Below, piece by piece: positions 14,360-32,000 of a stretch of DNA of 32,000 nt. The position numbers and the translations under genes are program-made. Source of the stretch: Trichlorobacter lovleyi SZ (GTDB lineage Bacteria; Desulfobacterota; Desulfuromonadia; Geobacterales; Pseudopelobacteraceae); the NCBI RefSeq assembly GCF_000020385.1, contig NC_010815.1, forward strand, positions 1 through 32,000, in the 5' to 3' direction. Numbering within the stretch: the stretch's first letter is position 1; each line of letters begins with the position of its first letter. The notes beneath the pieces are model-generated. The model searched no databases. It was not told where the DNA came from and was given only the letters and a program-made list of their open reading frames with translations.

Positions 14360-14430
14360 GATGGCTCCACATGTTCCATAAATTGTCACAACTAGCAGGC
14401 CGTTGAAAATCGGCTCGATTTGAGCCTGTT

Positions 14431-15834: not shown

Positions 15835-15984
15835 TTTTTACCTCAACTACTTAGAGTTCATTTTCAGTGTGTCCTTATTGCTCCTTGAAATCATTAGAGC
15901 GGTTCCCCCCCTGCGCTCTATAATACTCACGCTTTTTCGGACAGGTAGTTAAGTTTGGTTTGCCGTAGATTACGGGGGTAATCT

Positions 15985-17158: not shown

Positions 17159-17208
17159 AATCTTCAATTTGCTGTCTTGACAACCGTGAGTAGCTCAGTG
17201 TGCTGAGA

Positions 17209-18772: not shown

Positions 18773-20647
18773 TCAAAACCTCACCTGCACGCCCCCCAGC
18801 GCACGGATGCCGTCATCGGGATGTCCGTAGTGGTTCTGGTAACGGACATTACACAGGTTGTCAATTTTGGCAAAGATATCTGCCTTGATCTTTTTGTAGG
18901 TCAACGGCTGGGTAACACGAAGATCTGCTGTCAGATAATCGTTCATCTTCTGCATAACCAGATTCTCTGCTGGGCTATAGCGCACACCCTCATAACGGAG
19001 CGATGCTTCCAGGCGCGTTTTTACGTCTGGGATGGTGTACTGTGCCGTCGCCTTTAGCTTGATATCAGGCGTGTAGGGCAGGTCTTTTCCCGTATCCCGG
19101 TTTTTTGAACTCTGATAAATACACGACAGGTCACCGCTGAAACCGGATTCCCAACTTGATTTTGCCGTTACTTCAATGCCTTGCCGCTCGGCTCCGGCTA
19201 TATTGATCGGACGGTAGATAAGATCGGCGCCCCGTTGCGATGTGATCAGATCCCAGGTGTCTACTCTGAAAAGAGTGGCCTGAATCTGTCTGTTTTTGGC
19301 AAAACGGTACTCAAGACTCATATCGTATGAAAGCACCTTTTCGGTTTTTAGGTCTGGATTGCCCCTGCTTTGATCAATGGAGCCGTGTGTACTTTGATAG
19401 AGCTGTTCAAAGGTAGGAACATTGGTTACATAGCCAACCCGCATCTTCAGCAGAGTATTTTGGGTTGCAGCCCAACCAAGACCGAGCACCCCACCAGGGG
19501 TGAAGCCAAAATCATTAGTGATATCGCCACGGGCGCCAGCTGTTGCCGTAATATCTCCAAAACGTTTGTCAAACTGGGCATTCAAGCCGTTTCTGAACCG
19601 GTTGTGTCTTCCCGCCAGGCTGTGTTCATAATTATCAAATTCCGACATGCCGCCAAGCCGGAATTCCCACTTTTCTTGTTCATCAAGCCAACTGGTATCC
19701 AGCTTCAGGCCAACTTTCCGATCATCAAGAGTAGCGGTATAGCCCTGCTGAGATCTGTCCTTCAGGTTGAGCAGATCACCGTAGCTGTTCAGGGTGTAGG
19801 AGCCAGTCTCAAGCAAGGCCCCGGAAATGCGGCCATCAATCGATCCTTTACGGTACTGCTGACGCGCATTGGGGGTTTCATTGTCAATCGGCCCGGAAAC
19901 GCCGTATTCAGCCTGATAATAGCGCCCGTTGACCTCATATTTGTTGCCGTTTTTTATACTGCGATTCCAGTTGAGAGCTGCACTGCCATCGTTACGGTCA
20001 CTGTTGATACGTCTTCCATCACGGTGATTAAAGGTACCGGTTAGCAGCAGGTTGCCGTCTCCAACAGCCAAAGCCTGACTTGCGCTGGTCTGCAACAGGC
20101 CGTATGAACCTCCGGCAGCCTTAATGGAGCTTTTAAGCGTTTCCCCTTTGGTGTCACGCTTGATCTCACGGGTAATAATATTGATGGCGCCATCACTGCC
20201 GCCGGGACCCAGCCAGACCGGAACCGGCGGTTTAAATACCGTCACCGACTCAATCAGTTCGACCGGAATGGCATTCAGTTCCATCCCCCCGCTCTGATTG
20301 CTGTTCATGGGCCTACCGTTCAACAGTATCAGCACGCCGCTGGATTTCCCGGAGCCCCGGATGGCGATGCGGGTACCCATGCCGGAGGTTGGATACACAT
20401 CAACGCCAGGCATGGTTTTTAGAATCTCTTCCAAATTTGAATGGTTCCGTTTGATGATTTCAGCCCGAGTGACGTTGGTGACTTCCTGAGGATAATTTTT
20501 AATATACTCATCCAACCGGTCGGCAGTAACCACCACCTCGCCCAATGCGTAGGAGGATGGCGATCCCTTAACCGTTTCAGCAGCTACGGAACCGGCTGCC
20601 AACAGCACAACTGCTGCAGTTGGCAGTGCAATGGTACGATAGTTCAT
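18773..20647 (-). CDS. TonB-dependent outer-membrane receptor, BtuB-sized (624 aa)
   Basis: Signal peptide (..LLAAGSVAAE), TonB box GEVVVTA, plug domain, a long beta-barrel and a terminal aromatic residue (..GGVQVRF). It is the last gene of the riboswitch-controlled operon. Corrinoid specificity is inferred from context only. Confidence 0.85.
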   Translation of the reverse strand: MNYRTIALPTAAVVLLAAGSVAAETVKGSPSSYALGEVVVTADRLDEYIKNYPQEVTNVTRAEIIKRNHSNLEEILKTMPGVDVYPTSGMGTRIAIRGSGKSSGVLILLNGRPMNSNQSGGMELNAIPVELIESVTVFKPPVPVWLGPGGSDGAINIITREIKRDTKGETLKSSIKAAGGSYGLLQTSASQALAVGDGNLLLTGTFNHRDGRRINSDRNDGSAALNWNRSIKNGNKYEVNGRYYQAEYGVSGPIDNETPNARQQYRKGSIDGRISGALLETGSYTLNSYGDLLNLKDRSQQGYTATLDDRKVGLKLDTSWLDEQEKWEFRLGGMSEFDNYEHSLAGRHNRFRNGLNAQFDKRFGDITATAGARGDITNDFGFTPGGVLGLGWAATQNTLLKMRVGYVTNVPTFEQLYQSTHGSIDQSRGNPDLKTEKVLSYDMSLEYRFAKNRQIQATLFRVDTWDLITSQRGADLIYRPINIAGAERQGIEVTAKSSWESGFSGDLSCIYQSSKNRDTGKDLPYTPDIKLKATAQYTIPDVKTRLEASLRYEGVRYSPAENLVMQKMNDYLTADLRVTQPLTYKKIKADIFAKIDNLCNVRYQNHYGHPDDGIRALGGVQVRF

Positions 20648-20680: not shown

Positions 20681-21415
20681 TTATTCAAGACGAAAGACCA
20701 CCGGCATAATGATTTCAGCGGCAACCGGCGGTTTGGGAAAAGGGGCCACACCTTTCACCGTTTCCACGGCGCTATTGTCCAGCAGCGTATGGCCGCTGCC
20801 CTCTTTGACGTGGATTGAACGGACGCTACCGTCTTCTGCCACCACAAACGCCAAAACGACTCTGCCGCTCCAGCCCCTGCGACGTGCAAGCTGTGGATAG
20901 GTAAGGTGGCTCATGATCAGATCACGGATATAGGTAAAATGCTGGGCCCGGTACCGTTGCTGGGCCTGTCCTGAGGAGACTGTACCTCCACTTGATATCA
21001 CAGCAGGCTGTGATACAGAATGAGTTACAATGTTCGCAGCACCTCTTGCAGTCGGAGTGCCGCTGCTGCTTTCACTGACTGCATTAACGGCTTGGGTATC
21101 AGGCGGCATAACTGCCGCTGTATGTGGCGCCGCTGCAGCAACTGTTTGAGGTGTTGTTTGAAGCTGCTTTTGCTGAACAGGCTTCGGCTGCGCAGAAACC
21201 GGCTGATTCGCTGGTTTCTGCGGCTGCTGCGGCTGTATATCAGCCCTTTGCTGCGCCCCCTGCTGCCGCTCCGGCATTGTAGTGGTTGCAAGGGTAAAAT
21301 CGATACTGATCGGCGGGACAGAAGTGAGCGCAGAGCCAGCAAACAGCAGCACGACACAGAGCAGGCCGACATGCAGACCTAAAGAAATGCCGTACCACTT
21401 GACCTGACTATCCAT
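20681..21415 (-). CDS. tonB: TonB energy transducer
   Basis: N-terminal TM anchor, a Pro/Gln-rich spacer (QPQQPQKPANQPVSAQPKPVQQKQ) and a C-terminal TonB domain (YPQLARRRGWSGRVVLAFVVAEDGSV...). Overlaps the exbD stop. Confidence 0.85.
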   Translation of the reverse strand: MDSQVKWYGISLGLHVGLLCVVLLFAGSALTSVPPISIDFTLATTTMPERQQGAQQRADIQPQQPQKPANQPVSAQPKPVQQKQLQTTPQTVAAAAPHTAAVMPPDTQAVNAVSESSSGTPTARGAANIVTHSVSQPAVISSGGTVSSGQAQQRYRAQHFTYIRDLIMSHLTYPQLARRRGWSGRVVLAFVVAEDGSVRSIHVKEGSGHTLLDNSAVETVKGVAPFPKPPVAAEIIMPVVFRLE

Positions 21416-21791
21416 TGATGCTCTCTGTCTGAAGACTCAGTTTCTTGAAACCCATTTGGGTAACAGAATCCAGAACCTCTACAAACCCTTGTAGCAGCAG
21501 GCTTCTGTCGGCCCGTATCAAAACCGGTGCTGCTCGATCTACAGCGGATAAAGACTGTTTAAGCAGGGGAAGCGATGTTGGTTGTCCGTCAAGAAAGAGC
21601 CTGCCATCCCTGTTTATCTCTATGGTATGCCCTTGCAGCGCAGCGCTTGCCCCCTTTGCCGCCTTGGGCAACTGGATTGGAATGCTTCCTTGGGCAATAA
21701 ACGTAGAAGTAGTCAGTACAATAGTAAGCAATACCAGCATGATATCAATAAACGGGATAACGTTGATAACGCTAACTTCTTTCTCCTCCAT
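21408..21791 (-). CDS. exbD: ExbD/TolR-family protein
   Basis: 127 aa. [18 protein letters not shown] is a TM helix with the conserved Asp, followed by a periplasmic domain (..[15 protein letters not shown]). Confidence 0.88.
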
Positions 21792-22206
21792 TACGGGCCT
21801 CCCATGCCAGCAATGTTTCCTTGGCTTGTCGAACCAAGATATTGTAGATCGTTACCGCAGGGATGGCGACCACCAGCCCGATTGCGGTTGCCTTCAACGC
21901 CAGAGCCAGCCCAGTCATAATTTTTGTAGCATCAACAAAACCTTGTTGCCCCATTGTCGAAAATGTCAGCATAATCCCAAGCACTGTACCCAATAGGCCG
22001 ATATAAGGTGCATTGCTGCCAACTGTTGCAATAATATGCAGCTTACGTGTCAGAGCCAGTTCCAGCTCCTTCTTGTTCGTAAACTTCGTGCTGTCAAGCC
22101 TGCGATAAAAAGCCTTGCGCTCTAACGCTACAGCGACAGCAACAACACTCATGATCAGCAATAAGCCGATCACCCCATAATCAATAGCTGCCTTTAACCA
22201 ATCCAT
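21772..22206 (-). CDS. exbB: ExbB/TolQ (MotA family) proton-channel protein, short form
   Basis: 144 aa with [15 protein letters not shown] ... [14 protein letters not shown], the typical ExbB TM2/TM3 signature. Confidence 0.88.
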
Positions 22207-22250: not shown

Positions 22251-25200
22251 TTACCGGTTTCGTCTGAATCCGAAGCCTATCAACCCCACCAGTCCCACAA
22301 AACCCAGTATGAACAGCCAGGGGATCGGAGCCGAGGCCGCGCCGCTCTGTTGCGCCCCGGTTTCTTTCATCTCAAACCCTTCCACCTGCTTTCCCTTTGC
22401 CGCCTTGCCACTGCCGTCAGGGGCCGCGCCGCTTGCCCCCTGTTTGCTCGGTTGCGCCGTTGTCTGCGCTGCGGACTGCCTACCCTGCTGTCCGCTTCTG
22501 GCTGCATCCGGCTGTTTCATGTTTTGCAGCGCCTGTTTGAAGCCGGGGGCCAACGGTTTCAGACCCGGCACAGAGAGCAGGGTGGCGGTGGTAAATTCGG
22601 TCAGTTGCGGGTTGTTGCAGGTATGATCACAGCAGGCCAGCCCCACTTCCTGAACCGTTTTTGCATACTCCTCTGCCAGTTTTTCAACCACTTGGCTGTC
22701 CGGCTTCCAATACTGCTTGCGCACCGTCTCCAGCATCCGGGCCACCACTGACTGATAGGCCCACATATTTTTTGACTTGCGGAACATATCTTTAATCCCC
22801 AGGCCGTTGCGATCCAGCACCCAGGTTTCATGCATCTCCTGCCATTTGGCGGCATCCACCGCCTCCGGCACGGTTACCTGCCAGCCCCAAAGATGTTCCG
22901 TCACCTTGTCCACAAAACGTGCCCCGGCGTAGCCTTCCTTCATCATCGCCTTGATCCACTCCGGGTTCAGGTAGCGGGAGCGCATCTCCCGCCCCATCAT
23001 CTTTTCAAGGGTCTCCTGCACCGGCTGCTTCGGGTTGGTCATGTTGGTGACAAATACCTCTGGCGTCTTGCCGTCCACGGCCCGGATCGCCATGGCGGTG
23101 CCCCCCAGGTACTGAAAGAAATCGTCATTATCCAGGGTGGCAATAACATTGGAAGAACGGCTGTGAATGGCGATCTTGCTGCCGGACAGCGCGTTCTTCA
23201 GCAGGGTGTCCCCCAGCTTCTTGCCGTTATGTTCGGCGCTGTCACCCCAGAACCCCTGGCCGTAGAGGTGGCTCATCCGCATGAAGTAGACATCAACTAC
23301 CTGTTTTTCATTGTCCCAAGTATTGGAAGCTACAATCACCTTGTCCAGATTGGTGCCGTAGGCTCCGGACGGCTCGGTAAAGATGCGTACCGAGGCCAGC
23401 CGCTGCGCCTTTTCCTCCGAGACCCCTTTTGTCAGCAGCATCCTGCGGGTCTTCTCGACATTGCTGCGGATCAGGTTGTCCACTTCCTGCTGATCACGCG
23501 CTGTACTGACCGACTTGTCCAGCAGATCCATCAGGTTTGGAAACAGGTCGCGGTAGAGACCGGAGGGGACCATGGTGACATCAATTCGACCACGCCCCAG
23601 CTCGCCACGGGGGATAACTTCCACACCCTGCACCCGCCCCCTTTCATCCCACTTGGGGCGCACCCCCATCAGGTACATGATCTGCGATTCCATCACCCCT
23701 TCATGGCGGATGGTCTCGGTGGCCCAGATGTTGAAGGTCAGCTTGTCCGGGTAGACACCGTGACGTTTCCGATAACCGTCAATCAGCTCCTGCGCCAGTT
23801 TTTTCCCGGTGTTGTAGGTGCCGGGTGAGGGAACAAAGGCAGGGTCAAAGGAGTAAAAGTTCTTGCCGGTGGGGAGCGAATCCGGGTTCCTGATCGGGTC
23901 ATTGCCGCTGCCGGAAGGGATATAATTCCCGGCCAGGGCAGCTACGAAGGAATCCAGCTCCCGTTTGCCGCTGGCCTCAATGGCCTGTTCCAGGGCGGCA
24001 ATCCGCTTTTCCCGCTCGGCAGGGGTAAGGTTTTTCTCTATGGCGACAATTGCCTCTGCCGTACTGCGGCGGTAGCCTGCTTCCGGAGATCTGCCAAAGG
24101 TATGCAGACCGAACGGCGAAACCTTCTCCCCGATCTCCTTCAGGTAGTCGTCCAGCTCTTCTGCCTGCTCCGGGGTGCTGATGCTCGTTAGCTTCAGATC
24201 GGTCAGTATCCCGGTCTTGCGGGCCAACGTATTGATATCCTCCAGTTTTGCTGCGGCAAGCTGGGGCGATTTCTCACGGGCGGCGGTGTAATCGCTGATC
24301 AGGGCAGCAAGCAGCTTTGCCTCACGATTCATCCCGGACTTGTCCAGGGGGGGCGTCATGTAGTCAATAACCGTTGCCATGCCGCGCCGCTTGGCCTGCA
24401 GACCTTCACCCACATCATCCACGATGTAGGGGTAGATGTTGGGCAGTTCCTGAATCAGCAGCTCTGGCGGGTCTTCGCGGGTAAAACCGACCTCCTTGCC
24501 TGAAAGCCACTCATGGGTGCCGTGGGTGCCGATATGGGCCACGGCATCGGCCTTGAAGCCCCGTTTCAGCCAGAGATGAAAGGCGATATACTGGTGGTGC
24601 GGGGCGATATGGATATCGTGGTACAGCTTCTTGATATCCTGCTCCCACCCCCGCGAAGGCTGGGGGGTGAAGAGGATCTTGCCGTAACGAACGCCGGGCA
24701 GTACAATAAATTTTCTCCCCTTGGGATCGCTCCAGGTCATGATTTTCGCCTGATCCGGTTCGCCCCAGTCCTTGATCACCGACCTGCGGAACCTGTCCGG
24801 CAGCTCCATGAACCAGCTTTTGTAGACCTGTACCGGCAGCAGCAGGGCATGGCCGCTTCTGGCCAGCCGGTCTATCTCAGCCGGGGCCCAGTTGCCGATA
24901 TTGCGACCATAGGCGTGGACATCATCAAAAAGCTGGTCTTTGGAGACAGCCGTGACACCGGCATCGTACCCTTCAGCCTTCAAGCGGGCCAGCAGCTCAT
25001 ACAGGCTTTCCGGCATGACATTCAGGTAGGCAGCGCCGATGTTCTGTTTGCCCGGCGGATAGTTGTAGTAGATCAGGGCGATATGTTTGTCGCGGTTCTG
25101 CTTCTGCTGCAGGGCAAGCCAGCGTTTGACCCGTTGGGTCAGACGCTCGATCCGTTCAGGTATCGGGCGGGTCTCCACATATTCCATCCCGCTGGCCTTG

Positions 25201-26351
25201 TCCTTTATCCGTTCCTTGCTGGCCACCACGGTGGGCTGAATGATCCCCGCCAGTTCCGGCAAGCCGATGGAAGAACTACGCTCGAAGATATCCAGGCCAA
25301 CCGGTGACTTCTCCCACTCCTCCCTTGACTGGGAATGCAGGGTGACCGCATCAATAACCGGCACCCCGAGCCGGGTCAGGATCGGTACGGCCCGCTGCGG
25401 GGTAGTGCCTACCTTCAGGGAGATCCCGACAACCACCTGCACCCTGGCCTTGCCATTTTCATCAAACAAAAACTGCTCCACCGTTTTTTCCGACGGATAG
25501 CCGTAGACCGGCAGCACGTTCAGCCCCTGTCTTTCAAGCGAATCAATCAGACTGTCCAGCAGGGCTGTCTCGCCGTTGTCCACCAGATTCTTGTAAAACG
25601 GTATGCCGACCCAGGGGCCGGGCCTGCTGCGGTAGAGGCGCTGATACTCTGCAAAGCTGGTAACGGTGCGATGGCCGTCTTTCAGATAGATACCGAACTG
25701 GGGAACCTGGGCAGGGGGCACTGCCTTTACGGCAATACCGCAATCCCGTTGCAGCAGATACAGCACCATGTTGACGGCGTTATCCAGCCCTCCCTGCTGC
25801 ATGTATGAGGCAACCGTCCGGTCGTTTTGTAGCCCCAGATCCTTGTCGTCCTTGCCGTACATGCCGCCCACAGCGTAGACCTTCATCCCTTGCCGCATCA
25901 TGGCCTGCAGCGACGGTTTGAACGGCTCCAGGCCACGGCGATCCATGATATGGACGACACTGAATCCTCTGCTGCCTGGCTGTAAGGCCGGGAGCGCTGC
26001 GGCATCCCCTTTGGTCAGCACCCCAAACCGCACCTTGGCGCTCAGCTCCGGGTGGCGCTCCCTGATTGTCTGCACGGTTTTAACCGCTAGGCTGCTGTTG
26101 TAATCACCCAGGATCAGCCGGGCAAGAACCGGCGGTTGTGCAGGGGCTGCGCTGTCGGACGGGAGCGGCAGCAGAAGTATTGCAAATAAAGCCGCCAGCA
26201 TCAGCCACGCATTCTTTCGATTCCAGTTCAAGGATGATCTCAAGGCGGCGAGGAATTTGGCGACGCAGGCGTACACGAAGTACGTTGAGGAGCCAACGAC
26301 GAGCCAACGAAGAGAGCGCCTTGAAATGGAATCGGAATTATTCCGGAACAT
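22251..26351 (-). CDS. CobN / Mg-chelatase-H family protein, membrane-anchored at both ends (HmuS-like, not a canonical cytoplasmic CobN)
   Basis: 1366 aa with CobN-family blocks through the core (e.g. HIGTHGTHEWLSGKEVG). There is an N-terminal hydrophobic segment (AWLMLAALFAILLLPLPS) and a Gln/Ala/Gly-rich linker. A C-terminal TM helix plus basic tail follows (PIPWLFILGFVGLVGLIGFGFRRNR). The ATG at 26351 has GGAAGGTG upstream inside the previous gene. Alternative starts are the TTG at 26231 or the ATG at 26201. Confidence 0.85.
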   Translation of the reverse strand: MFRNNSDSISRRSLRWLVVGSSTYFVYACVAKFLAALRSSLNWNRKNAWLMLAALFAILLLPLPSDSAAPAQPPVLARLILGDYNSSLAVKTVQTIRERHPELSAKVRFGVLTKGDAAALPALQPGSRGFSVVHIMDRRGLEPFKPSLQAMMRQGMKVYAVGGMYGKDDKDLGLQNDRTVASYMQQGGLDNAVNMVLYLLQRDCGIAVKAVPPAQVPQFGIYLKDGHRTVTSFAEYQRLYRSRPGPWVGIPFYKNLVDNGETALLDSLIDSLERQGLNVLPVYGYPSEKTVEQFLFDENGKARVQVVVGISLKVGTTPQRAVPILTRLGVPVIDAVTLHSQSREEWEKSPVGLDIFERSSSIGLPELAGIIQPTVVASKERIKDKASGMEYVETRPIPERIERLTQRVKRWLALQQKQNRDKHIALIYYNYPPGKQNIGAAYLNVMPESLYELLARLKAEGYDAGVTAVSKDQLFDDVHAYGRNIGNWAPAEIDRLARSGHALLLPVQVYKSWFMELPDRFRRSVIKDWGEPDQAKIMTWSDPKGRKFIVLPGVRYGKILFTPQPSRGWEQDIKKLYHDIHIAPHHQYIAFHLWLKRGFKADAVAHIGTHGTHEWLSGKEVGFTREDPPELLIQELPNIYPYIVDDVGEGLQAKRRGMATVIDYMTPPLDKSGMNREAKLLAALISDYTAAREKSPQLAAAKLEDINTLARKTGILTDLKLTSISTPEQAEELDDYLKEIGEKVSPFGLHTFGRSPEAGYRRSTAEAIVAIEKNLTPAEREKRIAALEQAIEASGKRELDSFVAALAGNYIPSGSGNDPIRNPDSLPTGKNFYSFDPAFVPSPGTYNTGKKLAQELIDGYRKRHGVYPDKLTFNIWATETIRHEGVMESQIMYLMGVRPKWDERGRVQGVEVIPRGELGRGRIDVTMVPSGLYRDLFPNLMDLLDKSVSTARDQQEVDNLIRSNVEKTRRMLLTKGVSEEKAQRLASVRIFTEPSGAYGTNLDKVIVASNTWDNEKQVVDVYFMRMSHLYGQGFWGDSAEHNGKKLGDTLLKNALSGSKIAIHSRSSNVIATLDNDDFFQYLGGTAMAIRAVDGKTPEVFVTNMTNPKQPVQETLEKMMGREMRSRYLNPEWIKAMMKEGYAGARFVDKVTEHLWGWQVTVPEAVDAAKWQEMHETWVLDRNGLGIKDMFRKSKNMWAYQSVVARMLETVRKQYWKPDSQVVEKLAEEYAKTVQEVGLACCDHTCNNPQLTEFTTATLLSVPGLKPLAPGFKQALQNMKQPDAARSGQQGRQSAAQTTAQPSKQGASGAAPDGSGKAAKGKQVEGFEMKETGAQQSGAASAPIPWLFILGFVGLVGLIGFGFRRNR

Positions 26352-26676
26352 AGATCACCTTCCCGTCCTTTAACTGATAGGCGGTGCCCAGCCGTTCACC
26401 CTCCCCGGAGAGCCGCTTGTCCGTCACCTTGCGAACCTTGATCTCTTTGCCTTTTTTGCTGATTACCTCGATCTTGCCATCAGCCGTCTTCTTGGTGATG
26501 GTTACCTCGGACTTCGGGTCCATCAGGTCCAGCATGTTGTAGGCCATGAACAGGGCGATCATCATACTGACGATGAAGACCACGCTGACATCAAACAGGT
26601 TGGCCACCCCGGAAATAGGATCTTCAAGGGGCTCATCATATTTATCAAAACGGTTGCGGCGTTTAAGATAGCGCAT
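26338..26676 (-). CDS. ExbD/TolR-like small membrane protein (DUF2149-type)
   Basis: 112 aa with a basic N-terminus and a single TM helix carrying an Asp (VANLFDVSVVFIVSMMIAL, compare Exb[12 protein letters not shown]). A small Lys-rich soluble domain follows. Overlaps both neighbours. Confidence 0.65.
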   Translation of the reverse strand: MRYLKRRNRFDKYDEPLEDPISGVANLFDVSVVFIVSMMIALFMAYNMLDLMDPKSEVTITKKTADGKIEVISKKGKEIKVRKVTDKRLSGEGERLGTAYQLKDGKVIYVPE

Positions 26677-27259
26677 CGCTACGCTCCTCCTGAGCCGGTT
26701 CGCTGGGGCCGCCCAACCGTTGCCGCAGTGTCTTCTCGGTAAAAAACTCCATCTCCCGCAGGTCGGCCCGCACCCATTTTTCCTTGACCAGCGACATCAG
26801 GTAGGCCAGCACGCTGCAGGCGAGACCAACAACAACCGTGGTAAAGGCGGTGACCATGCTGCCTGCCATCTTGGGCATGTCCCCCTGTGCCAGTGAGGAA
26901 AGGGATATCCCCATCGGGATCAGGGTTCCCATCAGGCCCAGCGCCGGCCCGACCCGGATGACAAAACGGATTTTGTCCAATGATTTGATCTGGGCCAGTT
27001 CGGCGGTCTGCAGCAGACGCTCTGCCTGCAGATCAAGGTCCGGTGTTGCTCCGCCCTCTTCCAGCGTTGCAGTCAACTGTTTCTGAAAGCGCTCAAGGGG
27101 GTTTGAGGTGTTACGCCGGCGTTCAATCCACTCCCGTAAAAAGCCACCGGCAAAGATGGCAACCCAAGCCACCAACAGCACCAGTCCGGCCACCACGGGG
27201 AACAGCAAAACCGATGAAATCAGATATAAAAAGGTCTCAAGACCGGCCAGAATATTCAT
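26663..27259 (-). CDS. MotA/TolQ/ExbB-family proton-channel protein (second copy, divergent)
   Basis: 198 aa. One N-terminal TM helix, a cytoplasmic loop, then GPALGLMGTLIPMG ... MVTAFTTVVVGLACSVLAYL. This aligns by eye with the ExbB signature of the 144-aa protein at 21772-22206. Confidence 0.75.
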   Translation of the reverse strand: MNILAGLETFLYLISSVLLFPVVAGLVLLVAWVAIFAGGFLREWIERRRNTSNPLERFQKQLTATLEEGGATPDLDLQAERLLQTAELAQIKSLDKIRFVIRVGPALGLMGTLIPMGISLSSLAQGDMPKMAGSMVTAFTTVVVGLACSVLAYLMSLVKEKWVRADLREMEFFTEKTLRQRLGGPSEPAQEERSDALS

Positions 27260-27957
27260 TTGGTATCTCCTTTGCGCATAAAAAAGCCTGCCAGCAGCGC
27301 CGCAGCCAGCAGTATCACCAGCAGCAGGGACTGGCTGCTGTTCCCACCCGCTGCTGCCGGTTGCATCTCCTTCAGAAATGAACCGTACATCCCTTTGGCC
27401 TGCTCAACCTTGGCCGGCAGAAACAGTGAGGCGATGAAATACAAGCCGATGGTGATCATGGCCAGGCCCAGCGCCGGGATGTTGTTGCCGCTTTCTCCTG
27501 ATTTTGTAAGCAGCATCACCAGCAGGGTCATAACGGCAAAGCTGCTGCCCAACACCAACCCCACGGCCCAGGGCAGCAGCGGCAGGCTGTGCAGGGCGGT
27601 CCAGGTTGAGAAGGTCATGGCGGTCAGACAGACCGGACAGGGGATCAGCAATGCCAGGGAGGAAGCCGGAGAACAGCGCCTACCCGGCTTCCCGATCAGC
27701 CAGCCGCCCCAGACGATCATTCCCAGCGCCATAACTCCATGCAGCCAGGGGCCGCCCTTGAGCAGCGGTTCAAGCAGCTTCAGCAACTGTACGGCCAGCA
27801 GGGCAATCAACTCAAACAGCAGCAGATACAGCCCCAGAGTCAACGCGATTCCTTTGCGGCTGACCTGACCATATCCCAGTCCGGTGCCGGTCTTGACGGC
27901 AAAGATTCCCAGGCTGAAGAGGGTGCCGCCGACCCAGAGCAACAGATTCAGATCCAT
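27256..27957 (-). CDS. Polytopic (about 7 TM) membrane protein with an intramembrane CPVC motif (DUF2162-like putative transporter)
   Basis: Highly hydrophobic. The motif LLIPCPVCLTAM lies inside predicted TM4. Start placed at the ATG at 27957 with AAAGGAAG 6 nt upstream. The ORF track begins at the TTG at 27972, overlapping the receptor stop. Confidence 0.65.
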   Translation of the reverse strand: MDLNLLLWVGGTLFSLGIFAVKTGTGLGYGQVSRKGIALTLGLYLLLFELIALLAVQLLKLLEPLLKGGPWLHGVMALGMIVWGGWLIGKPGRRCSPASSLALLIPCPVCLTAMTFSTWTALHSLPLLPWAVGLVLGSSFAVMTLLVMLLTKSGESGNNIPALGLAMITIGLYFIASLFLPAKVEQAKGMYGSFLKEMQPAAAGGNSSQSLLLVILLAAALLAGFFMRKGDTK

Positions 27958-27968
27958 GACGCTTCCTT

Positions 27969-30182
27969 TCAAAACTTGAAGCCCAGTTCTGCATAACAGG
28001 AACGGCCCGGCGCCAGGGAGGAAGAGTAGTAATGCTCGTCAAACAGGTTGGTGACAGCCAACGAGGCGGTGGCCCAGGCGGTAATTTTGTAACGCAACTT
28101 CAGGTCCACGGTGAAATAGGGGTCATTGCTGCCCTGTACGCCGTTGACGGTGTCGGTGTTGGTGTCGCTGGAATAGCGTTTACCCACATAGCGACCGGTT
28201 GCTGTGGCCCCAAAACTGCCGTAATCCAGATCAGCCCCCAGATTGAACATATGTTCCGGCACATCAGTTACCCGTTTGCCTACGGTTGCGGGAACTGCAC
28301 TGTTTTCCTTGATGGTTGCGTCGGTGTAGGTGTAATTGGCAAACAACCGCAACAGGGAGTCAAACTTCTGTTCTGCCTCAAGCTCTACCCCTCTGCTTTC
28401 GGCCTTACCTGCGTTGGCCTTGTCTTTCCAGGTGGGGGTGGTTGAAGTGCTGTAGATCAGGTCACTGATGTAGTTCTCAAAATAGGTGGCGGTAAATTTG
28501 GAACCTTTCCAGAGCCGCTGGCTGACACCTGCATCCCAGGAAATGACGGTTTCCGGTTTCAGGTTGGGGTTTCCGGCGTAGGTGGTGCCGCTGGAGGTGG
28601 TCCAGGTGCGGTAGAGGTCATACACTGTGGGCGCCCGAAATGCCTTGCCGCCGGATAATTTGAACGTGGTTGTGTCAAACGGTCTGTATACCAGCGCGCC
28701 TTTGGGGCTGAAGGCATCGGCGCTACGGGAACCGTAGGTTTGAGGATAGCCAACACTGCCGACCTGATTGGCATAACCGTCAAAGGTATCCCACCAGTCC
28801 TGCCGGAATCCGGCAAACAGGGTCAGTTTGTCCAGCAGAGCTATTTCACCTTCGGCAAACAGGGCAAAGGTGCGGTCGGTACCCTTTGATTCGTAGGTCA
28901 GGGCTCCTTTGGAGTTTTCATCCTGCCAGTTTGAGAGATTGTGCTCTCTGGAATGGGACCAGCCGGTGCGGTAGGCGCCACCCACGGTCAACAGATGCTT
29001 ATCCAGAATCGGTATTGAAGCCTGAATATCGGCATTAAAGGCGGCTGCCGGGGTATCGGACAGCTTGCCCGGCCCGCCGTTACGGGTACCGCCGTTGGGC
29101 GGCGCAGCCGAGGTGGGCGTGGTTCCCCAACTGGTCATCTGATCAAGATACCCCAGATTCAGCTTGTACTTGACCGTTGCCAGCTCTGTTTCAGCGCTAA
29201 ATCCATACAGGTGCTGATCACTGCCGCCATTTCCCCCGAGAAAGGATGCCTCCCGTACTGTGCCGTAGCTCCAGACTTCAGCGCCGCTACTGTTGCGCAG
29301 GTAGGTGGCCGGATTGTCGTAGGAATATTCGCCGGTTGACTTCATAAAAGTCAGCTTGAGCTTCGTATTGGAAGGAAGTTCGAGCTCTGCCTTGGCGGTC
29401 AGGTTGTCCTGCCAGGCACCGTTTTTGCCTTTGTCTCCCAGCCGATAGCGGGTTGCGCCGGTATAATCAGTGGTCGGCTCCCAGCCAGTGATACCAGCAG
29501 TCGGTTTGCTGCTTTGTACGTTGGTGTCACTGCGGTAGCCGTCGGTGGCCAGATAGTCGTTATGCAGGTAGAGTTTGATTTTCCCCAGATACTTGTCACC
29601 GTAGGAGGCGGCAACCCGTCTGGTATTTTGCATGCCGTTGGGACTGTCCAAAGCAAAACCGTAACCGCCAGTCAGGGTTAGTTCCCGCTTTTCAGGCATT
29701 CGGGTGATCATGTTGACCACCCCCCCCATGGCATATCCGCCGTAAAGACTGGAGGCCGGACCTTTAACCACTTCAATCCGTTCAAGGCTGCTGGGTGAAA
29801 TACCTACGGACACCACCGATCCGGCGTAAGGGCTGTTGATGGTAATGCCGTCCAGCATCACCAGCGTGCGGGACTGCCCCGGAATACCGCGCAGGGTAAT
29901 GGCAGACATCCGGTCCATCATCCCTTTGCCCCGAGTAGAGAGTACGCCAGGAGTGGTATTAATCGCCTCGTCTACTGTCGTGATATTCCGTTTTTCCATT
30001 TCCTCCTTTGTTACAACGGAGACACTGCCCGGTGCCGTTGCCAGATCCTGTTCAGTTCTGGTTGCCGTCACCACAACCTGTTCAAGCCTGGCTTCGCCAG
30101 GAACAGTCTCCGCCTGTGCGGTGCTGCACGCTGCCAGCGCCAGCCCCACCACCACGGCACACTTCTGCCTGTTTCTCTTCAT
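27969..30182 (-). CDS. TonB-dependent outer-membrane receptor (737 aa)
   Basis: Signal peptide (..ACSTAQAE), TonB box EQVVVTATR, plug (ITLRGIPGQSRTLVMLDGITIN), beta-barrel and terminal ..ELGFKF. It is the first gene after the tandem riboswitch leader. Confidence 0.88.
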   Translation of the reverse strand: MKRNRQKCAVVVGLALAACSTAQAETVPGEARLEQVVVTATRTEQDLATAPGSVSVVTKEEMEKRNITTVDEAINTTPGVLSTRGKGMMDRMSAITLRGIPGQSRTLVMLDGITINSPYAGSVVSVGISPSSLERIEVVKGPASSLYGGYAMGGVVNMITRMPEKRELTLTGGYGFALDSPNGMQNTRRVAASYGDKYLGKIKLYLHNDYLATDGYRSDTNVQSSKPTAGITGWEPTTDYTGATRYRLGDKGKNGAWQDNLTAKAELELPSNTKLKLTFMKSTGEYSYDNPATYLRNSSGAEVWSYGTVREASFLGGNGGSDQHLYGFSAETELATVKYKLNLGYLDQMTSWGTTPTSAAPPNGGTRNGGPGKLSDTPAAAFNADIQASIPILDKHLLTVGGAYRTGWSHSREHNLSNWQDENSKGALTYESKGTDRTFALFAEGEIALLDKLTLFAGFRQDWWDTFDGYANQVGSVGYPQTYGSRSADAFSPKGALVYRPFDTTTFKLSGGKAFRAPTVYDLYRTWTTSSGTTYAGNPNLKPETVISWDAGVSQRLWKGSKFTATYFENYISDLIYSTSTTPTWKDKANAGKAESRGVELEAEQKFDSLLRLFANYTYTDATIKENSAVPATVGKRVTDVPEHMFNLGADLDYGSFGATATGRYVGKRYSSDTNTDTVNGVQGSNDPYFTVDLKLRYKITAWATASLAVTNLFDEHYYSSSLAPGRSCYAELGFKF

Positions 30183-30360
30183 TACTTTCCCCCTCGGGTT
30201 GATATGCAGATGGAGCCGTCTTCCGGCTTAAGGCTACCTACTTACCCACCTTCCCAGGAATGCTCCCAGTGGTTGTTTCACCTCGTGGTGACGGGCTTTC
30301 GTTCCTATTACGGCTGCGGGGCAGCGGGGGTATTTAACCCCTCTTCCTCAACTCCATCTG
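30183..30360 (-). promoter_or_regulatory. Second, divergent cobalamin-riboswitch-like aptamer (30207-30360) plus SD region, in tandem with copy 3
   Basis: The minus-strand RNA is closed by a perfect 9-bp helix, CAGAUGGAG (30360-30352) with CUCCAUCUG (30215-30207). Inside it reads GAGGAAGAGGGGUUAAAUACCCCCGCUGCCCCGCAGCCGUAA .. CCACUGGGAGCAUUCCUGGGAAGG .. AAGCCGGAAGACGGCUCC. This is colinear with the AGGGAA-GGUGA-CCCGC-CUGUAA, CACUG-GGGAAG and B12-box blocks of the upstream aptamer. GAGGGGGAAAG (SD) and the AUG follow within 25 nt. Confidence 0.6.
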
Positions 30361-30375
30361 TTTGAAAACAAGCAC

Positions 30376-30413: not shown

Positions 30414-30488
30414 TCCGTATTCAAAGTCGAACCGTTCAACCGGTTACTCTCCCTTTACCGTCGGGAACTGCGAGTAACAACAATCAGC

Positions 30489-30650
30489 GGCAGGTCTTCT
30501 GACTTGCGAGTCATCCTCCGGGCGTCTTCCCAATCTAAATGATCAGTGACGTTGTTGCCCTTCGTCATCGCTTACAGCGGCGGGTCCGCGGGGGAATAGC
30601 TCGTCAGAGCGTCACCCCTCTTCCCTTTTCACCCTTGCGGGCACCGTGAT
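30489..30650 (-). promoter_or_regulatory. Cobalamin riboswitch aptamer, copy 3
   Basis: Minus strand reads GGUGCCCGCAAGGGUGAAAAGGGAAGAGGGGUGACG..UUCCCCCGCGGACCCGCCGCUGUAAGCG..GUCACUGAUCAUUUAGAUUGGGAAGACG..AAGUCAGAAGACCUGCC. A TTGACA hexamer at 30739-30744 is a possible -35. Confidence 0.9.
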
Positions 30651-30752
30651 TCGTGCATATTCAGTTGTGTTTGTACTGCAGGTTGCCGGCTACCATCTTC
30701 ATAACCGGCTGATATCAAATGCCAAGTAATTTCGATGATGTCAATGACTATT

Positions 30753-31787
30753 TCATAGTTCGTCCCTGTGCAGGGCAACCTGGCTGCGGCTGGCCAGCAC
30801 GGCCCATGAATGGGAAGGGAGCTTGATCAACCTGGTATGCGTAAGGCCAACCTCCTGCAGCAAGGCGCTGGTGTCAATGCTGCTGTAACAGCGCCCGTTC
30901 CAGGTGTTGACCAGCATGTGCAGGTCGTACAGGGCACCGTACAGGTTGGCATCGCGAAAAAAGTCATGTACCACCAGCAGGCCGTCGGGGGTAAGCATCC
31001 CGGCTGCCTGTTCCAGCAGGGCCCCGTTCTCCTGCGGTCCATAGCAGTGCAACAGGTTTGACAGCAGTACCAGCCCCGCTGTGCCGTGGTGCGCTGCAGT
31101 ACAGGCGCTAAACTCCTGTTGATCCAGGATGTTGCAGGGCAAGACCGTCAGCTTGCCCGGCAGATCCTGGCACATTATCCGTACGCAGACATCCGGCAGG
31201 TCGCAGGCAATCCCCTGCCAGTCCGGATAGCGCTGGAGAAAAGCGCGGAGATAAGCCCCCTCACCAGCGCCGATGTCCATAATGATCCCCTGGGGCGGCA
31301 GCAGCGGCGCAAGGGCGTGCCACAACTCTGCGGAGCGGACACTGGCGGCCTCGGCCATGCTGGCCTGAAAAAGCTCCAGCCGCTTGTGGTAGGCATCCTG
31401 CGGTTGGGGCTGGGTCAGGGCCCCCTGTCCCTGTTGCAGGATAGTGCCGACTTGACGCCAGTTCTCGATCAGCAGCGGTTCAAACAACAGGGTGTTACGC
31501 TGATTTTCAGTGCTTGCGCGGCTGAGAAAGCGTTGGCTGAAGGGGCTCAGCCCCAGCCGGTCATCACGTTGTTGCAGCAGCCCAAGGGTGCAGAGCAGGT
31601 CCACAAACCGTCCGGTCTCGTCAGGCTGCAGGTTGAGGCAGTCAGCCAGTGCCGCAGGGGTGTCAGAGCCCGCCTCCACCGCATCAACGATCCCGCTGCG
31701 GACTGCCTCGGCCAGCAGGTAAAACTGGCGGTAGCCCGCGAGCATGGCGCTGAACCCGGCAAAGGAGTCATCCACAATCGGGATCAT
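30753..31787 (-). CDS. SAM-dependent O-methyltransferase (family-2 type with N-terminal dimerisation/winged-helix domain); BzaC-like candidate
   Basis: Start placed at the ATG at 31787 (MIPIVDDSFAG...), 7 nt after the upstream stop. The 45 extra ORF-track codons overlap the ThiC-like gene. SAM motif I DIGAGEGAY, plus LLSNLLHCY and the N-terminal LLAEAVRSGIVDAV...LGLL helix-turn-helix-like domain. Confidence 0.75.
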   Translation of the reverse strand: MIPIVDDSFAGFSAMLAGYRQFYLLAEAVRSGIVDAVEAGSDTPAALADCLNLQPDETGRFVDLLCTLGLLQQRDDRLGLSPFSQRFLSRASTENQRNTLLFEPLLIENWRQVGTILQQGQGALTQPQPQDAYHKRLELFQASMAEAASVRSAELWHALAPLLPPQGIIMDIGAGEGAYLRAFLQRYPDWQGIACDLPDVCVRIMCQDLPGKLTVLPCNILDQQEFSACTAAHHGTAGLVLLSNLLHCYGPQENGALLEQAAGMLTPDGLLVVHDFFRDANLYGALYDLHMLVNTWNGRCYSSIDTSALLQEVGLTHTRLIKLPSHSWAVLASRSQVALHRDEL

Positions 31788-31794
31788 GGCCTTG

Positions 31795-32000
31795 TCAGCA
31801 CTTGTCCCCGCACAGATGCTCCGCAAACAGCTTGCCTGCGCCGCGGGAGGCGCAGAAGTTGCCGCACATGGTGCAGGTGGCCTCATCCTCAGGGATACGG
31901 CTGGCGCGGATCGCCTTGGCATCCTCCGGGAAAAGGGCCAGTTCGAACTGCTTCTGCCAGTCCAGGTCCCGCCGGGCCTTGGCCATGGCCTTGTCCCGCT
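31795..32000 (-). CDS. ThiC-family radical-SAM-like protein, C-terminal end only (ThiC or its paralogue BzaF/BzaA); partial at window edge
   Basis: RDKAMAKARRDLDWQKQFELALFPEDAKAIR...ATCTMCGNFCA matches the ThiC C-terminus pattern (RD.A.SKAR..F.W..QF.LSLDPE.A ... CSMCG.FC). The frame is open to the window edge. Confidence 0.7.
   Translation of the reverse strand, partial: RDKAMAKARRDLDWQKQFELALFPEDAKAIRASRIPEDEATCTMCGNFCASRGAGKLFAEHLCGDKC

Follow-up and report, generated by a model that had tools for sequence, protein, structure and literature searches.

A vitamin B12-controlled, Geobacter-type version of the hmu/BtuS gene cluster in Trichlorobacter lovleyi

In the window analyzed here, the 32,000 nucleotides at positions 1 to 32,000 of contig NC_010815.1 of Trichlorobacter lovleyi SZ, nine tightly packed genes form an operon on the minus strand, downstream of two tandem cobalamin riboswitches. 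The genes encode, in this order, a TonB-dependent receptor, a DUF2162 protein, a MotA/ExbB-like protein, a DUF2149 protein, a CobN-like protein, ExbB, ExbD, TonB and a second receptor. A Pfam family was assigned to each of the nine, neighboring genes either overlap by 4-20 nt or are separated by gaps of 33-44 nt, and a search for promoters and terminators within the operon yielded no convincing candidate.

30472..30663, minus strand: cobalamin riboswitch aptamer 1, operon leader (Rfam RF00174, match to the full-length model, 107.3 bits; gathering score 31.5)
30197..30371, minus strand: cobalamin riboswitch aptamer 2 (Rfam RF00174, 65.5 bits)
27969..30182, minus strand: TonB-dependent outer-membrane receptor 1, in the HmuR position (Pfam Plug and TonB_dep_Rec_b-barrel)
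27256..27972, minus strand: DUF2162 polytopic membrane protein, 238 aa from TTG (Pfam DUF2162, 1.7e-63)
26663..27259, minus strand: MotA/TolQ/ExbB-family channel subunit, HmuU-like, 198 aa, 3 TM segments (Pfam MotA_ExbB, 3.1e-10, above the gathering score)
26338..26676, minus strand: DUF2149 protein, HmuV-like, 112 aa, N-in single-pass (Pfam DUF2149, 2.6e-33)
22251..26351, minus strand: CobN-like class I chelatase homolog, BtuS/HmuS-like, 1366 aa (Pfam CobN-Mg_chel, 1029 bits)
21772..22206, minus strand: canonical ExbB, short exbB2 type, 144 aa (Pfam, 5.3e-29; NCBIfam TIGR02805, 151 bits, cut-off 135)
21408..21791, minus strand: canonical ExbD, 127 aa (Pfam ExbD, 7.5e-26)
20681..21415, minus strand: TonB (Pfam TonB_C, 3e-18; NCBIfam tonB_Cterm, above the cut-off)
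18773..20647, minus strand: TonB-dependent receptor 2, closest resemblance to BtuB (Pfam Plug and barrel)

The three reading frames on which the initial annotation centered (DUF2162, MotA-like and DUF2149) lie on the minus strand at the coordinates given there, and the neighbors it listed, the CobN-like protein, ExbB, ExbD and TonB, were all recovered, together with the two TonB-dependent receptors. Overlooked in that annotation were the two cobalamin riboswitches (Rfam RF00174), which are the strongest clue to function: because they control the operon, its genes are turned on under B12 scarcity. The second aptamer ends 15 nt from the start codon of receptor 1, and at least 28 related loci, nearly all of them of the DUF2162 type, are likewise preceded by a B12 riboswitch on the same strand. 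The top NCBIfam subfamilies are TonB-hemin and TonB-B12 for receptor 1 and TonB-B12 for receptor 2, all under the cut-off. The same window contains CbiK and other cbi genes of the anaerobic route, as well as CbiMNQO with a riboswitch of its own; the host is a Geobacteraceae-like genome that produces B12 via that route. Given this cbi pathway with CbiK, along with CbiMNQO, the CobN-like protein is not the biosynthetic chelatase.

The region represents the hmu/BtuS gene cluster, which is already known, in a Geobacter-type form under vitamin B12 control; its operon is the B12-type counterpart of the Bacteroidota hmu cluster (hmuYRSTUV; Porphyromonas gingivalis, Bacteroides thetaiotaomicron, B. 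fragilis). In that cluster the MotA/ExbB protein is HmuU, the DUF2149 protein is HmuV and the CobN-like protein encoded beside them is HmuS, and HmuU and HmuV have previously been likened to ExbB and ExbD (PMC10100974), so that the system is not of a new kind. Shared between the two systems are the families of the TonB-dependent receptor, HmuS (a CobN-like membrane-anchored periplasmic protein), HmuU (MotA/ExbB) and HmuV (DUF2149, 112 aa), and the overlap of the U and V genes. The T. lovleyi operon differs in gene order, with the T-like, U and V genes preceding S; it lacks the HmuY hemophore, contains the unrelated DUF2162 with a PCPxC motif in place of HmuT, includes ExbB-ExbD-TonB and a second receptor, and is preceded by tandem cobalamin riboswitches, whereas the hmu operon is under iron/heme control. 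The best fit is the description of BtuS, the CobN-related type of Rodionov et al. 2003 which, as far as it is cited in PMC6460266, is B12-regulated, is not a biosynthetic chelatase, clusters with an outer-membrane receptor and is predicted to function in metalloporphyrin salvage. An hmu-like operon preceded by a B12 riboswitch has been noted for B. fragilis (PMC10100974). The BtuS/hmu-like literature consulted for this comparison contains no discussion of the DUF2162 component or of co-resident ExbBD-TonB.

The CobN-like protein has TM segments at residues 47-67 and 1339-1364, the N- and C-terminal anchors, and, being held in the membrane at both ends, presumably faces the periplasm; its real start may lie near Met51. 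Each of the 53 full-length CobN-like proteins from these clusters has a TM helix followed by a basic tail at its C-terminus. As in CobN-CobS-CobT and ChlH-ChlI-ChlD, the CobN-Mg_chel architecture is full-length, and the HxGxHG and LDxDD(F/Y)(F/Y)Q(F/Y)xGG motifs of solved CobN structures are present (here HIGTHG and LDNDDFFQYLGG), but the protein scores under the cut-off of every NCBIfam CobN/BchH model and, unlike these class I chelatases, is anchored at both ends, probably on the periplasmic side. The top PDB sequence match is HmuS (9d26, 1.2e-141), with CobN at 1.6e-133. Two features of HmuS, a Met-rich insertion and the motif LSLDHxxEFMGG, are missing. Judged from the sequence, the active-site motifs are of the CobN type rather than the HmuS type, a new observation. 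Class I chelatases usually depend on ATP-driven partners; the window contains none of the AAA+ partner genes, and B12 synthesis in the host uses CbiK. The activity of HmuS is independent of ATP, and purified soluble B. thetaiotaomicron HmuS devoid of the anchors removed iron from heme, with NADH alone sufficing (PMC12583661).

The Pfam and NCBIfam assignments bear out the presence of two stator-type pairs within the one operon. In the MotA-like protein, for which an NCBIfam search returned no equivalog, hhalign matches the segments GLMGTLIPMG and TAFTT to the TM2/TM3 core of the ExbB from the same operon (E 2.4e-5). In DUF2149, whose gene shares 14 nt with the MotA-like gene, Asp29 (NLFDV) aligns with the ExbD Asp and is conserved in 97% of 122 cluster representatives (50% identity). 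Conservation counts and hhalign thus place the motifs quoted in the initial annotation far above chance, and the upstream pair is a distinct family whose small subunit has a conserved Asp in its TM helix, in the position it occupies in ExbD. The AF2 model of DUF2149 (pLDDT 81.7) consists of a helix at residues 20-45 and six strands, and the periplasmic domain is predicted to be a small all-beta fold of ~55 residues that is not ExbD/TolR-like. Foldseek with this model found no ExbD/TolR match, and neither Pfam, NCBIfam, a PDB-sequence profile search nor hhalign gave a significant match of DUF2149 to ExbD/TolR. The description of the 112-aa protein as ExbD-like therefore stands for its architecture and TM-Asp helix only, and fails for the sequence at large; absence of an ExbD/TolR-like fold or of a complex with the MotA-like protein had been named as counting against the proposed translocation unit, and the predicted periplasmic domain indeed lacks such a fold. 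Both the confinement of the likeness to one helix and the predicted all-beta domain are new.

The pair resembles ExbB-ExbD-TonB and TolQ-TolR-TolA in that one subunit belongs to the MotA/TolQ/ExbB family and keeps the TM2/TM3 core, while the other is small, N-in and single-pass, its helix carrying an Asp of the essential type close to the cytoplasmic end. The genes are translationally coupled in both cases, and a periplasmic client anchored in the membrane is encoded with them. In contrast to these systems, DUF2149 falls outside the ExbD/TolR family, with a predicted all-beta periplasmic domain half the size; the presumed client, rather than TonB or TolA, is a ~1,300-residue enzyme with a helical anchor at its C-terminus (and another at its N-terminus); and the MotA/DUF2149 pair is also found in organisms that lack an outer membrane.

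The MotA-like, DUF2149 and CobN-like genes are neighbors throughout a set of 80 genome loci from many phyla, wherever the contig reaches far enough (presence in 76, 80 and 78 loci, respectively, the misses being contig ends); the MotA-like gene is found at all loci uninterrupted by a contig end, immediately precedes the DUF2149 gene in all contexts examined and overlaps it in most of the 80. Bacteroidales hmuYRSTUV contigs, checked directly, hold the same three families together. Hence the pair travels with the CobN-like gene, as anticipated, and since the three genes are adjacent throughout, the scattering that was to speak against a functional unit is not what is seen. The trio originally proposed, with DUF2162 as the third member, is not a fixed unit: its slot is occupied by an unrelated HmuT in Bacteroidales and by other membrane proteins in acidobacterial and other loci, and is empty in Methylomonas loci, while the pair and the CobN-like gene stay. 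This combination of strict adjacency with a replaceable DUF2162 is new, and DUF2162 would be an accessory particular to B12-type clusters. Some MotA/DUF2149 pairs have no CobN-like neighbor, so the pair is not chelatase-specific; the neighbors in these cases likewise have a signal peptide, along with an anchor at the C-terminus.

DUF2162 is a 7-TM protein with an invariant PCPxC motif at residues 111-115 (P111-C112-P113-x-C115), in 39 and in 56 DUF2162 proteins; H78 and K27 are likewise invariant among the 56 homologs. The homologs start at the ATG at 27957 (MDLN...), the end coordinate in the initial annotation, and by this comparison the ATG is probably the true start, not the TTG. In the all-helical AF2 model (pLDDT 78) the motif lies at a helix break; the model had no fold match in the PDB, and we found no sequence or fold link to a solved transporter or known redox protein. 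DUF2162 is not homologous to Bacteroidales HmuT, which has no Cys motif. In P1B ATPases, the metal site is a CPx motif within the membrane. Like these ATPases, DUF2162 has a Cys-Pro-x-Cys, invariant across the family, at a mid-membrane helix break, but it comprises 238 residues, has no ATPase domains and shows no detectable homology or fold match to them; the likeness is that of the motif alone, and metal translocation via CPVC is purely conjectural.

We tentatively favor the view that the MotA-like protein and DUF2149 form a dedicated proton-driven motor that would act on an anchored periplasmic (de)chelatase in cobalt or corrinoid salvage. The two receptors, powered by the operon's own ExbB-ExbD-TonB, would bring a cobalt complex into the periplasm, either a tetrapyrrole (corrinoid or cobalt porphyrin) or one of another type, and there the CobN-like enzyme, held to the inner membrane by its terminal helices, would remove or exchange the metal; cobalt or a corrinoid as the substrate is suggested by the regulation and one motif. 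The pair would be a separate ExbBD-style proton channel, probably 5:2, with Asp29 carrying the proton, and, being always adjacent to the CobN-like gene in these loci, would probably power this enzyme rather than TonB. Because the periplasm has no ATP, such a motor would substitute for the AAA+ ATPases (CobS/T, ChlI/D) that power cytoplasmic class I chelatases. DUF2162, with PCPxC in mid-membrane, would most likely pass the freed Co2+ inward or, alternatively, supply reducing equivalents. At least for the heme-type enzyme, a motor is not essential to the chemistry, since anchorless HmuS works with NADH alone.

Less likely, the pair is a second, divergent ExbB/ExbD that energizes TonB and thereby one of the two receptors. 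The MotA-like protein lies within the MotA/TolQ/ExbB family, DUF2149 has the TM Asp, the window encodes two receptors along with two stator pairs, and HmuU/V are drawn as the ExbB/ExbD of HmuR in Bacteroides hmu models (PMC10100974, PMC12583661). A TonB-dependent receptor is encoded in 61 of the 80 related loci, and in nine a TonB-like gene is present although neither ExbB nor ExbD is encoded close by. In roughly seven of the nine this gene immediately precedes DUF2162, and the arrangement would also fit the pair as the energizer of that TonB. However, the T. lovleyi operon already encodes a canonical ExbB-ExbD-TonB (ExbB and ExbD occur in 11 of the related loci), a receptor is found less consistently than the CobN-like gene, and ExbD touches TonB via its periplasmic domain, the very part in which DUF2149 shows no similarity to ExbD/TolR by HMM, hhalign or Foldseek. 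Furthermore, Planctomycete-type loci contain the MotA-like, DUF2149 and CobN-like genes but neither a receptor nor TonB within 8-9 kb (one such locus adjoins CobW, HypA and CbiMQO), the same absence within 8-9 kb applies to pairs in SLH and CW_binding_2 (cell-wall-binding) contexts, and DUF2149 is a core family of a methanogen lineage, 'linked to TolQ' (PMC9425974). Occurrence of the pair with no receptor or TonB nearby is new, and a role distinct from TonB function, as first suggested, fits these contexts and the co-resident ExbB-ExbD-TonB.

Two further explanations center on DUF2162. CPxC is the classical spacing of a redox-active dithiol, and DUF2162 is tied to riboswitch-type clusters, whose substrate could plausibly be a Co(III) corrinoid; the protein could conduct electrons across the membrane by a thiol-disulfide (CxxC) route and so provide the periplasmic CobN-like enzyme with the reducing power that Co(III)/Fe(III) need before de-chelation, with the stator pair in an unrelated housekeeping or assembly role. 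This is very improbable: no similarity to DsbD/CcdA or another redox membrane protein was found, both cysteines lie mid-membrane in one helix with no second invariant pair among the 56 homologs, and the strict MotA-like/DUF2149/CobN-like linkage is left unexplained. Somewhat better placed, albeit still unlikely, is an inner-membrane importer in which DUF2162 is the permease with a metal or tetrapyrrole site at PCPxC, the stator pair lets the proton gradient drive transport and the CobN-like protein does no more than deliver the substrate. The invariance of PCPxC, H78 and K27 in a polytopic membrane protein, the CPx precedent of the P1B ATPases and the ECF-type Co/Ni transporter genes that recur beside MotA/DUF2149 pairs all favor it, and the operon encodes no other inner-membrane importer. 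Yet the third component is not conserved while the pair and the CobN-like gene persist, DUF2162 has no detectable link to any solved transporter, and, to our knowledge, no 5:2 motor powers substrate transport across the inner membrane itself. In the Bacteroidales counterparts, HmuTUV has been proposed as an inner-membrane transporter in P. gingivalis (PMC12094164, PMC13227078), but in Bacteroides the released iron enters via FeoAB (PMC6460266). The importer explanation is close both to the idea of the initial annotation and to the proposal that HmuTUV transports heme.

The three open reading frames in which a MotA-like protein, an ExbD-like protein and a CPVC membrane protein had been recognized in the initial annotation are present on the minus strand and are assigned in Pfam to the MotA_ExbB, DUF2149 and DUF2162 families, respectively. 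They belong to a run of nine genes, in the order receptor, DUF2162, MotA-like, DUF2149, CobN-like, ExbB, ExbD, TonB, second receptor, in which neighbors overlap or stand no more than 44 nt apart. Thus, two stator-type pairs indeed share one operon, namely, MotA-like/DUF2149 (hereafter, the pair) and the ExbB-ExbD of a complete ExbB-ExbD-TonB set, in which ExbB clears the cut-off of the NCBIfam exbB2 equivalog model. Promoter-like and terminator-like sites within the operon are no more numerous than in shuffled sequences, and a split of the operon by internal promoters or terminators was therefore rejected.

Features of the operon and its leader
30472-30663, minus strand: full-length cobalamin riboswitch aptamer (RF00174, 107.3 bits, gathering threshold 31.5)
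30197-30371, minus strand: full-length cobalamin riboswitch aptamer (RF00174, 65.5 bits, gathering threshold 31.5)
27969-30182, minus strand: TonB-dependent receptor, first gene of the nine-gene run
27256-27972, minus strand: DUF2162 protein, 238 aa from a TTG start (Pfam, 1.7e-63)
26663-27259, minus strand: MotA_ExbB protein, 198 aa (Pfam, 3.1e-10, above gathering threshold)
26338-26676, minus strand: DUF2149 protein, 112 aa (Pfam, 2.6e-33)
22251-26351, minus strand: CobN-like protein, 1366 aa (Pfam CobN-Mg_chel)
18773-20647, minus strand: second TonB-dependent receptor, BtuB-like, last gene of the run

The DUF2162 homologs begin at the ATG at 27957, where the initial annotation had placed the end of this gene trio. 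Both RF00174 aptamers lie in the 5' leader of the operon, on the same strand, and the second ends 15 nt ahead of the start codon; these tandem riboswitches had previously not been picked up. In two related loci from other genomes, L005 (6178-6713) and L009 (8125-8568), a second riboswitch match likewise lies no more than about 400 nt from the first. The window contains two more cobalamin riboswitches.

13558-13752, minus strand: cobalamin riboswitch
823-1003, minus strand: cobalamin riboswitch

One of these precedes CbiMNQO, which is encoded in the window with a riboswitch of its own ahead, and cbi biosynthesis genes, and the other points to a gene that is cut off at the window's low end. Of the four aptamers in the window, three have nearly identical sequences. 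The window also encodes the anaerobic cobalamin pathway (CbiK, CbiL/H/F-type methylases, CbiD, CbiG, CbiJ, CbiC, CbiA and CysG).

The 198-aa protein contains three hydrophobic segments and matches the Pfam MotA_ExbB profile at 40.3 bits (gathering threshold 22.9; E 3.1e-10), with 116 of the 127 profile positions covered. Its TM2/TM3 core, which consists of a G-L-x-G-T motif and a T/A-rich helix (GPALGLMGTLIPMG ... TAFTTVVVGL), is conserved in 67 homologs and aligns over 71 columns with the alignment of the operon's own ExbB (hhalign, E 2.4e-5). Judging by its sequence, this protein is a genuine but divergent member of the MotA/TolQ/ExbB family; NCBIfam has no model for either the 198-aa or the 112-aa protein.

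The 112-aa protein scores 114.7 bits against the DUF2149 profile (cut-off 27.1). In its AF2 model (pLDDT 81.7, pTM 0.45, from an alignment of 74 sequences), a single N-in TM helix spans residues 20-45, with Asp29 near the cytoplasmic end; this aspartate is kept in 97% of the 122 representatives (clusters at 50% identity), and N26, L27 and F28 are each conserved in more than 90%, together forming an N-L-F-D motif. Of the ExbD-like character previously ascribed to this protein, the lone TM helix and its conserved Asp stand, but they come without an ExbD/TolR profile match or a predicted periplasmic domain of that type. Neither Pfam nor NCBIfam yields an ExbD/TolR match at E <= 0.01, and a DUF2149 profile search of the PDB sequences retrieves no ExbD, TolR or MotB. 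In the hhalign register, D29 coincides with the Asp of ExbD, but the alignment is confined to 17 TM columns and is not significant (P 0.065). Residues 57-109 of the model form a domain of about 55 residues, with six short strands and no helix, the periplasmic domains of ExbD and TolR being larger alpha/beta units; a Foldseek search of the PDB, for which the query was the entire chain, long helix included (model pTM 0.45), returns nothing below E 0.9 and no ExbD/TolR. From the PDB profile search, the TM-only hhalign result and the Foldseek search, membership of DUF2149 in the ExbD/TolR family was rejected: the protein has the architecture and the charged residue of a stator B-subunit, yet lies outside that family. 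A weak resemblance between the DUF2149 C-terminus (26338-26500) and the SLBB-like region of ComEA (YRLxDGxVVYVPE and LQDGTVVYIPKKGE, respectively; no helix there in the AF2 model) is not significant (E 1.5), and the SLBB link was dropped.

The named relatives closest to the 112-aa protein, from Geotalea and Geobacteraceae, are 94-97% identical to it, and across Desulfobacterota, Nitrospirota, Verrucomicrobiota and others the identity is 80-97%, compared to about 55-75% for the CobN-like protein, about 45-70% for DUF2162 and about 30-60% for the receptor. This unusual conservation relative to the neighbors reflects either an unusually strong constraint or else a recent spread of the cluster.

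A scan with one genome per species yielded 80 loci, from Desulfobacterota, Nitrospirota, Verrucomicrobiota, Planctomycetota (Brocadiia), Methylomonas, Bacteroidota and Acidobacteriota among others. DUF2149 is present in all 80, the CobN-like gene in 78 and the MotA-like gene in 76, the misses being at contig ends; wherever the contig allows, the three genes are adjacent and co-oriented, and the stop of the MotA-like gene usually overlaps the DUF2149 start. A TonB-dependent receptor of any kind was found in 61 of the 80 loci, DUF2162 in 40 by BLAST (three further, divergent copies still contain PCPVC), ExbB plus ExbD in 11, and a TonB-like gene without ExbB or ExbD in nine, in about seven of which it directly precedes DUF2162. 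Loci lacking DUF2162 encode other, unrelated polytopic proteins or, in Methylomonas, none. As to whether the trio always travels with a CobN-like gene, the MotA-like and DUF2149 genes adjoin it in all testable loci, but DUF2162 is replaceable. At least 28 loci, with few exceptions of the DUF2162 type, are preceded by a same-strand cobalamin riboswitch; none precedes those loci of Methylomonas, Sphingobacterium, Dyadobacter, Bryobacterales and Brocadiia that were checked.

More distant members of the DUF2149 family were sampled by contig look-up. The MotA-like gene directly precedes DUF2149, usually with an overlap, in every context examined, comprising the hmu operons of Bacteroidales and ten further contexts. 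The Planctomycete-type loci combine a CobN-like gene with the pair, and neither a receptor nor TonB is encoded within 8-9 kb; one such locus adjoins CobW, HypA and CbiMQO. In other sampled loci, the pair is found beside SLH/DUF3344 proteins and CbiQ/ABC genes, beside a PKD-domain protein (one locus), or beside homologous 569-aa and 615-aa proteins with no Pfam domain (two loci, one of which also encodes a CW_binding_2 protein and Fur-CbiMQO); one sampled locus has no obvious partner. The non-CobN neighbors of the pair combine a signal peptide with a C-terminal anchor (6664-8373 in locus L098, 6525-8372 in L100 and 644-1642 in L092), suggesting that such anchored secreted proteins are a general client type. 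Genes for ECF-type Co/Ni transporters (CbiM, CbiQ, ABC ATPase) recur beside the pair in unrelated lineages (8361-12972 in L086; 4139-6982 and 13576-16093 in L088; 11063-14149 in L100; 10809-13601 in the window), joined by CobW and HypA in L088 and by Fur in L100, suggesting that the MotA/DUF2149 family as a whole is connected with cobalt or nickel. The archaeal occurrence of DUF2149 rests on published data rather than on the loci sampled here: an arCOG analysis counts DUF2149, 'linked to TolQ', among the core families of one lineage of methanogens (PMC9425974), and Methanomicrobia are among the HmuV hosts (PMC10100974).

The gene set in the window belongs to the known hmu/BtuS clusters. In the hmu system of Bacteroidota, HmuU is the MotA/TolQ/ExbB protein, HmuV is DUF2149 and HmuS is the neighboring CobN-like protein (PMC11681262), the latter characterized in 2025 as a periplasmic, membrane-anchored heme de-chelatase (PMC12583661). 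The Bacteroidales homologs of the 112-aa protein are accordingly found in operons that encode HmuY, a receptor, a CobN-like protein, a 237-aa membrane protein, MotA_ExbB and DUF2149. HmuU/V have been described as ExbB/ExbD-like (PMC10100974) and drawn as energizers of HmuR (PMC10100974, PMC12583661), whereas HmuT, HmuU and HmuV are still called uncharacterized in papers from 2025-2026 (PMC12094164, PMC13227078). Operons of the hmu kind without HmuY and behind a cobalamin riboswitch were noted in 2023 (PMC10100974), and BtuS, a third, B12-regulated type of CobN, was predicted to function in metalloporphyrin salvage (Rodionov et al. 2003, as cited by Rocha et al., PMC6460266). Given that the gene set is of a known kind and the ExbB/ExbD analogy for HmuU/V is published, neither is new as an observation. 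The window operon differs from the heme-type hmu operons in being under B12 rather than iron/heme control, in the addition of ExbB-ExbD-TonB and a second, BtuB-like receptor, and in lacking HmuY. Beyond the hmu/BtuS literature that we found are the evidence against homology between DUF2149 and ExbD outside the TM helix, the evidence that links the pair to the CobN-like gene rather than to TonB or a receptor, the finding that the third membrane protein varies, and the CobN-type active-site motif in the B12-type enzymes.

HmuS is a CobN-type protein of six domains with a membrane anchor at either end; the CobN-like protein agrees with it in its CobN-Mg_chel match and in hydrophobic segments at 47-67 and 1339-1364, and its best full-length match among the PDB sequences is HmuS (9d26, 1.2e-141; CobN, 1.6e-133). 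The Met-rich insertion by which HmuS is defined (residues from about 684 to 902) has no counterpart in this protein, which runs from 755 to 763 across that stretch and contains no Met-rich window (at most 7 Met in 60 residues, elsewhere). The strict motifs of HmuS are HFG(T/A)HG and LSLDHxxEFMGG, with axial His-538 and His-1209, and Glu-1212 (PMC12583661). The first motif of the CobN-like protein, HIGTHG, fits the former; the second, LDNDDFFQYLGG, stands in place of the latter, with Asp for His and Gln for Glu, and is of the type seen in solved CobN proteins (LDSDDYYQFEGG, DSDDYFQYHGG). Over the second-motif stretch, CobN outscores HmuS as a match. The missing Met-rich insertion and the different second motif led us to reject a heme-type HmuS ortholog, and there is no HmuY domain among the operon products. 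A biosynthetic CobN was rejected as well, given the scores below the NCBIfam cut-offs (900 bits for the best CobN model, cut-off 1619), the membrane anchors and the CbiK that the host encodes; the window encodes no AAA+ chelatase subunits. All 53 full-length CobN-like proteins from the related clusters (L002-L076) end in a TM helix followed by a basic Arg/Lys tail, and in the window's clade the motif EG(F/Y)EMQE ... SAPIP(W/Y)LF is conserved just ahead of this helix (C-terminus encoded at 22251-22400). Together, the helix, tail and motif resemble a tripartite sorting signal or a segment at which a motor would dock.

In DUF2162, the P111-C112-P113-x-C115 motif is invariant among 39 locus-derived and 56 database homologs, as are K27 and H78. 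The AF2 model (pLDDT 78) is all-helical, with PCPxC at a helix break in the central hydrophobic segment; against the PDB, Foldseek finds no match below E 0.29, so that neither a transporter nor a DsbD/CcdA relative can be claimed, and no second family is detected in Pfam/NCBIfam. Of the features of a P1B-type metal site, the CPx motif is present and invariant, but the 238-residue protein contains no P-type ATPase domains; because it shows no resemblance to solved structures and belongs to no second family, the P1B-ATPase analogy is one of motif only. The Bacteroidales HmuT is equal in size to DUF2162, yet not detectably homologous: the alignment of the two families spans 16 columns (hhalign, E 0.065), HmuT lacks PCPxC or any Cys motif, and homology was accordingly rejected.

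The combination of B12-riboswitch control with a CobN-type active site points to cobalt/corrinoid salvage in anaerobic sediments, which has been little studied compared to heme-iron harvesting in the gut. Tentatively, and giving this reading somewhat less than an even chance, we propose that the pair is a proton-driven motor that acts on the anchored CobN-like enzyme of a cobalt/corrinoid salvage operon. The two proteins would form a putative ExbBD-style proton-driven complex, with the CobN-like enzyme or, in broader terms, an extracytoplasmic protein with a C-terminal anchor as its proposed client; such a motor might stand in for the AAA+ partners (CobS/T, ChlI/D) of the cytoplasmic class I chelatases. 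The operon would then serve cobalt or corrinoid salvage at low B12, and DUF2162 could take up the released metal or supply electrons.

The main rival, under which the pair is a spare ExbBD that energizes TonB, appears unlikely to us, although it is kept alive by the loci that contain a TonB-like gene but no ExbB/ExbD and by the activity of soluble HmuS without any motor (PMC12583661). The equation of HmuU/V with ExbB/ExbD is hard to hold when a full ExbB-ExbD-TonB set already stands beside the pair in the window operon, when other clusters have no receptor or TonB nearby, and when the predicted periplasmic domain of the partner is unlike that of ExbD. An inner-membrane importer centered on DUF2162 and energized by the pair would be compromised by the non-conservation of the third membrane component, and we consider it improbable. 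A motor for the anchored CobN-like enzyme could also be an instance of something broader, which we regard as possible, with more doubt than attaches to the specific proposal: the pair might represent a widespread class of its own among proton-driven motors of the 5:2 type, the clients of which would be not TonB/TolA but extracytoplasmic proteins with a C-terminal helix as membrane anchor, chiefly CobN-like chelatases of the periplasm, so that the motor would power periplasmic (de)metalation. If so, the proton gradient would power the removal or insertion of tetrapyrrole metals outside the cytoplasm, DUF2162 would take up the freed cobalt via its intramembrane PCPxC site, and the occurrence in methanogens and monoderms would make the motor an envelope energy-transfer system independent of the outer membrane.

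The roles of HmuT, HmuU and HmuV have been a question since the hmu operon was first described, and the model now used for Bacteroides simply treats HmuU/V as ExbB/ExbD. Should the pair drive an anchored chelatase, this would be a new class of client for the MotA/ExbB motor family and the first instance of coupling between the proton gradient and a step of tetrapyrrole (de)metalation. An operon with both motors makes HmuTUV function cleanly testable: in a tractable Geobacter relative, TonB energization can be separated from HmuUV function by deletion, which is not easily done in Bacteroides.

A low-GC stretch (14000-18636, GC 0.37-0.41), with an HlyD-type gene and, next to it, two genes of mobile elements, separates the cbi/CbiMNQO block from the second receptor.

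16235-17158: IS3-type integrase gene
17239-18636: DDE/DUF772 transposase gene

Given the location of this stretch, an insertion may have brought the two B12-regulated blocks together or, conversely, moved them apart. An O-methyltransferase-like gene, whose product has a long Ala/Pro-rich N-terminal extension, lies immediately upstream of the leader with the riboswitches, at 30753-31922 on the minus strand.
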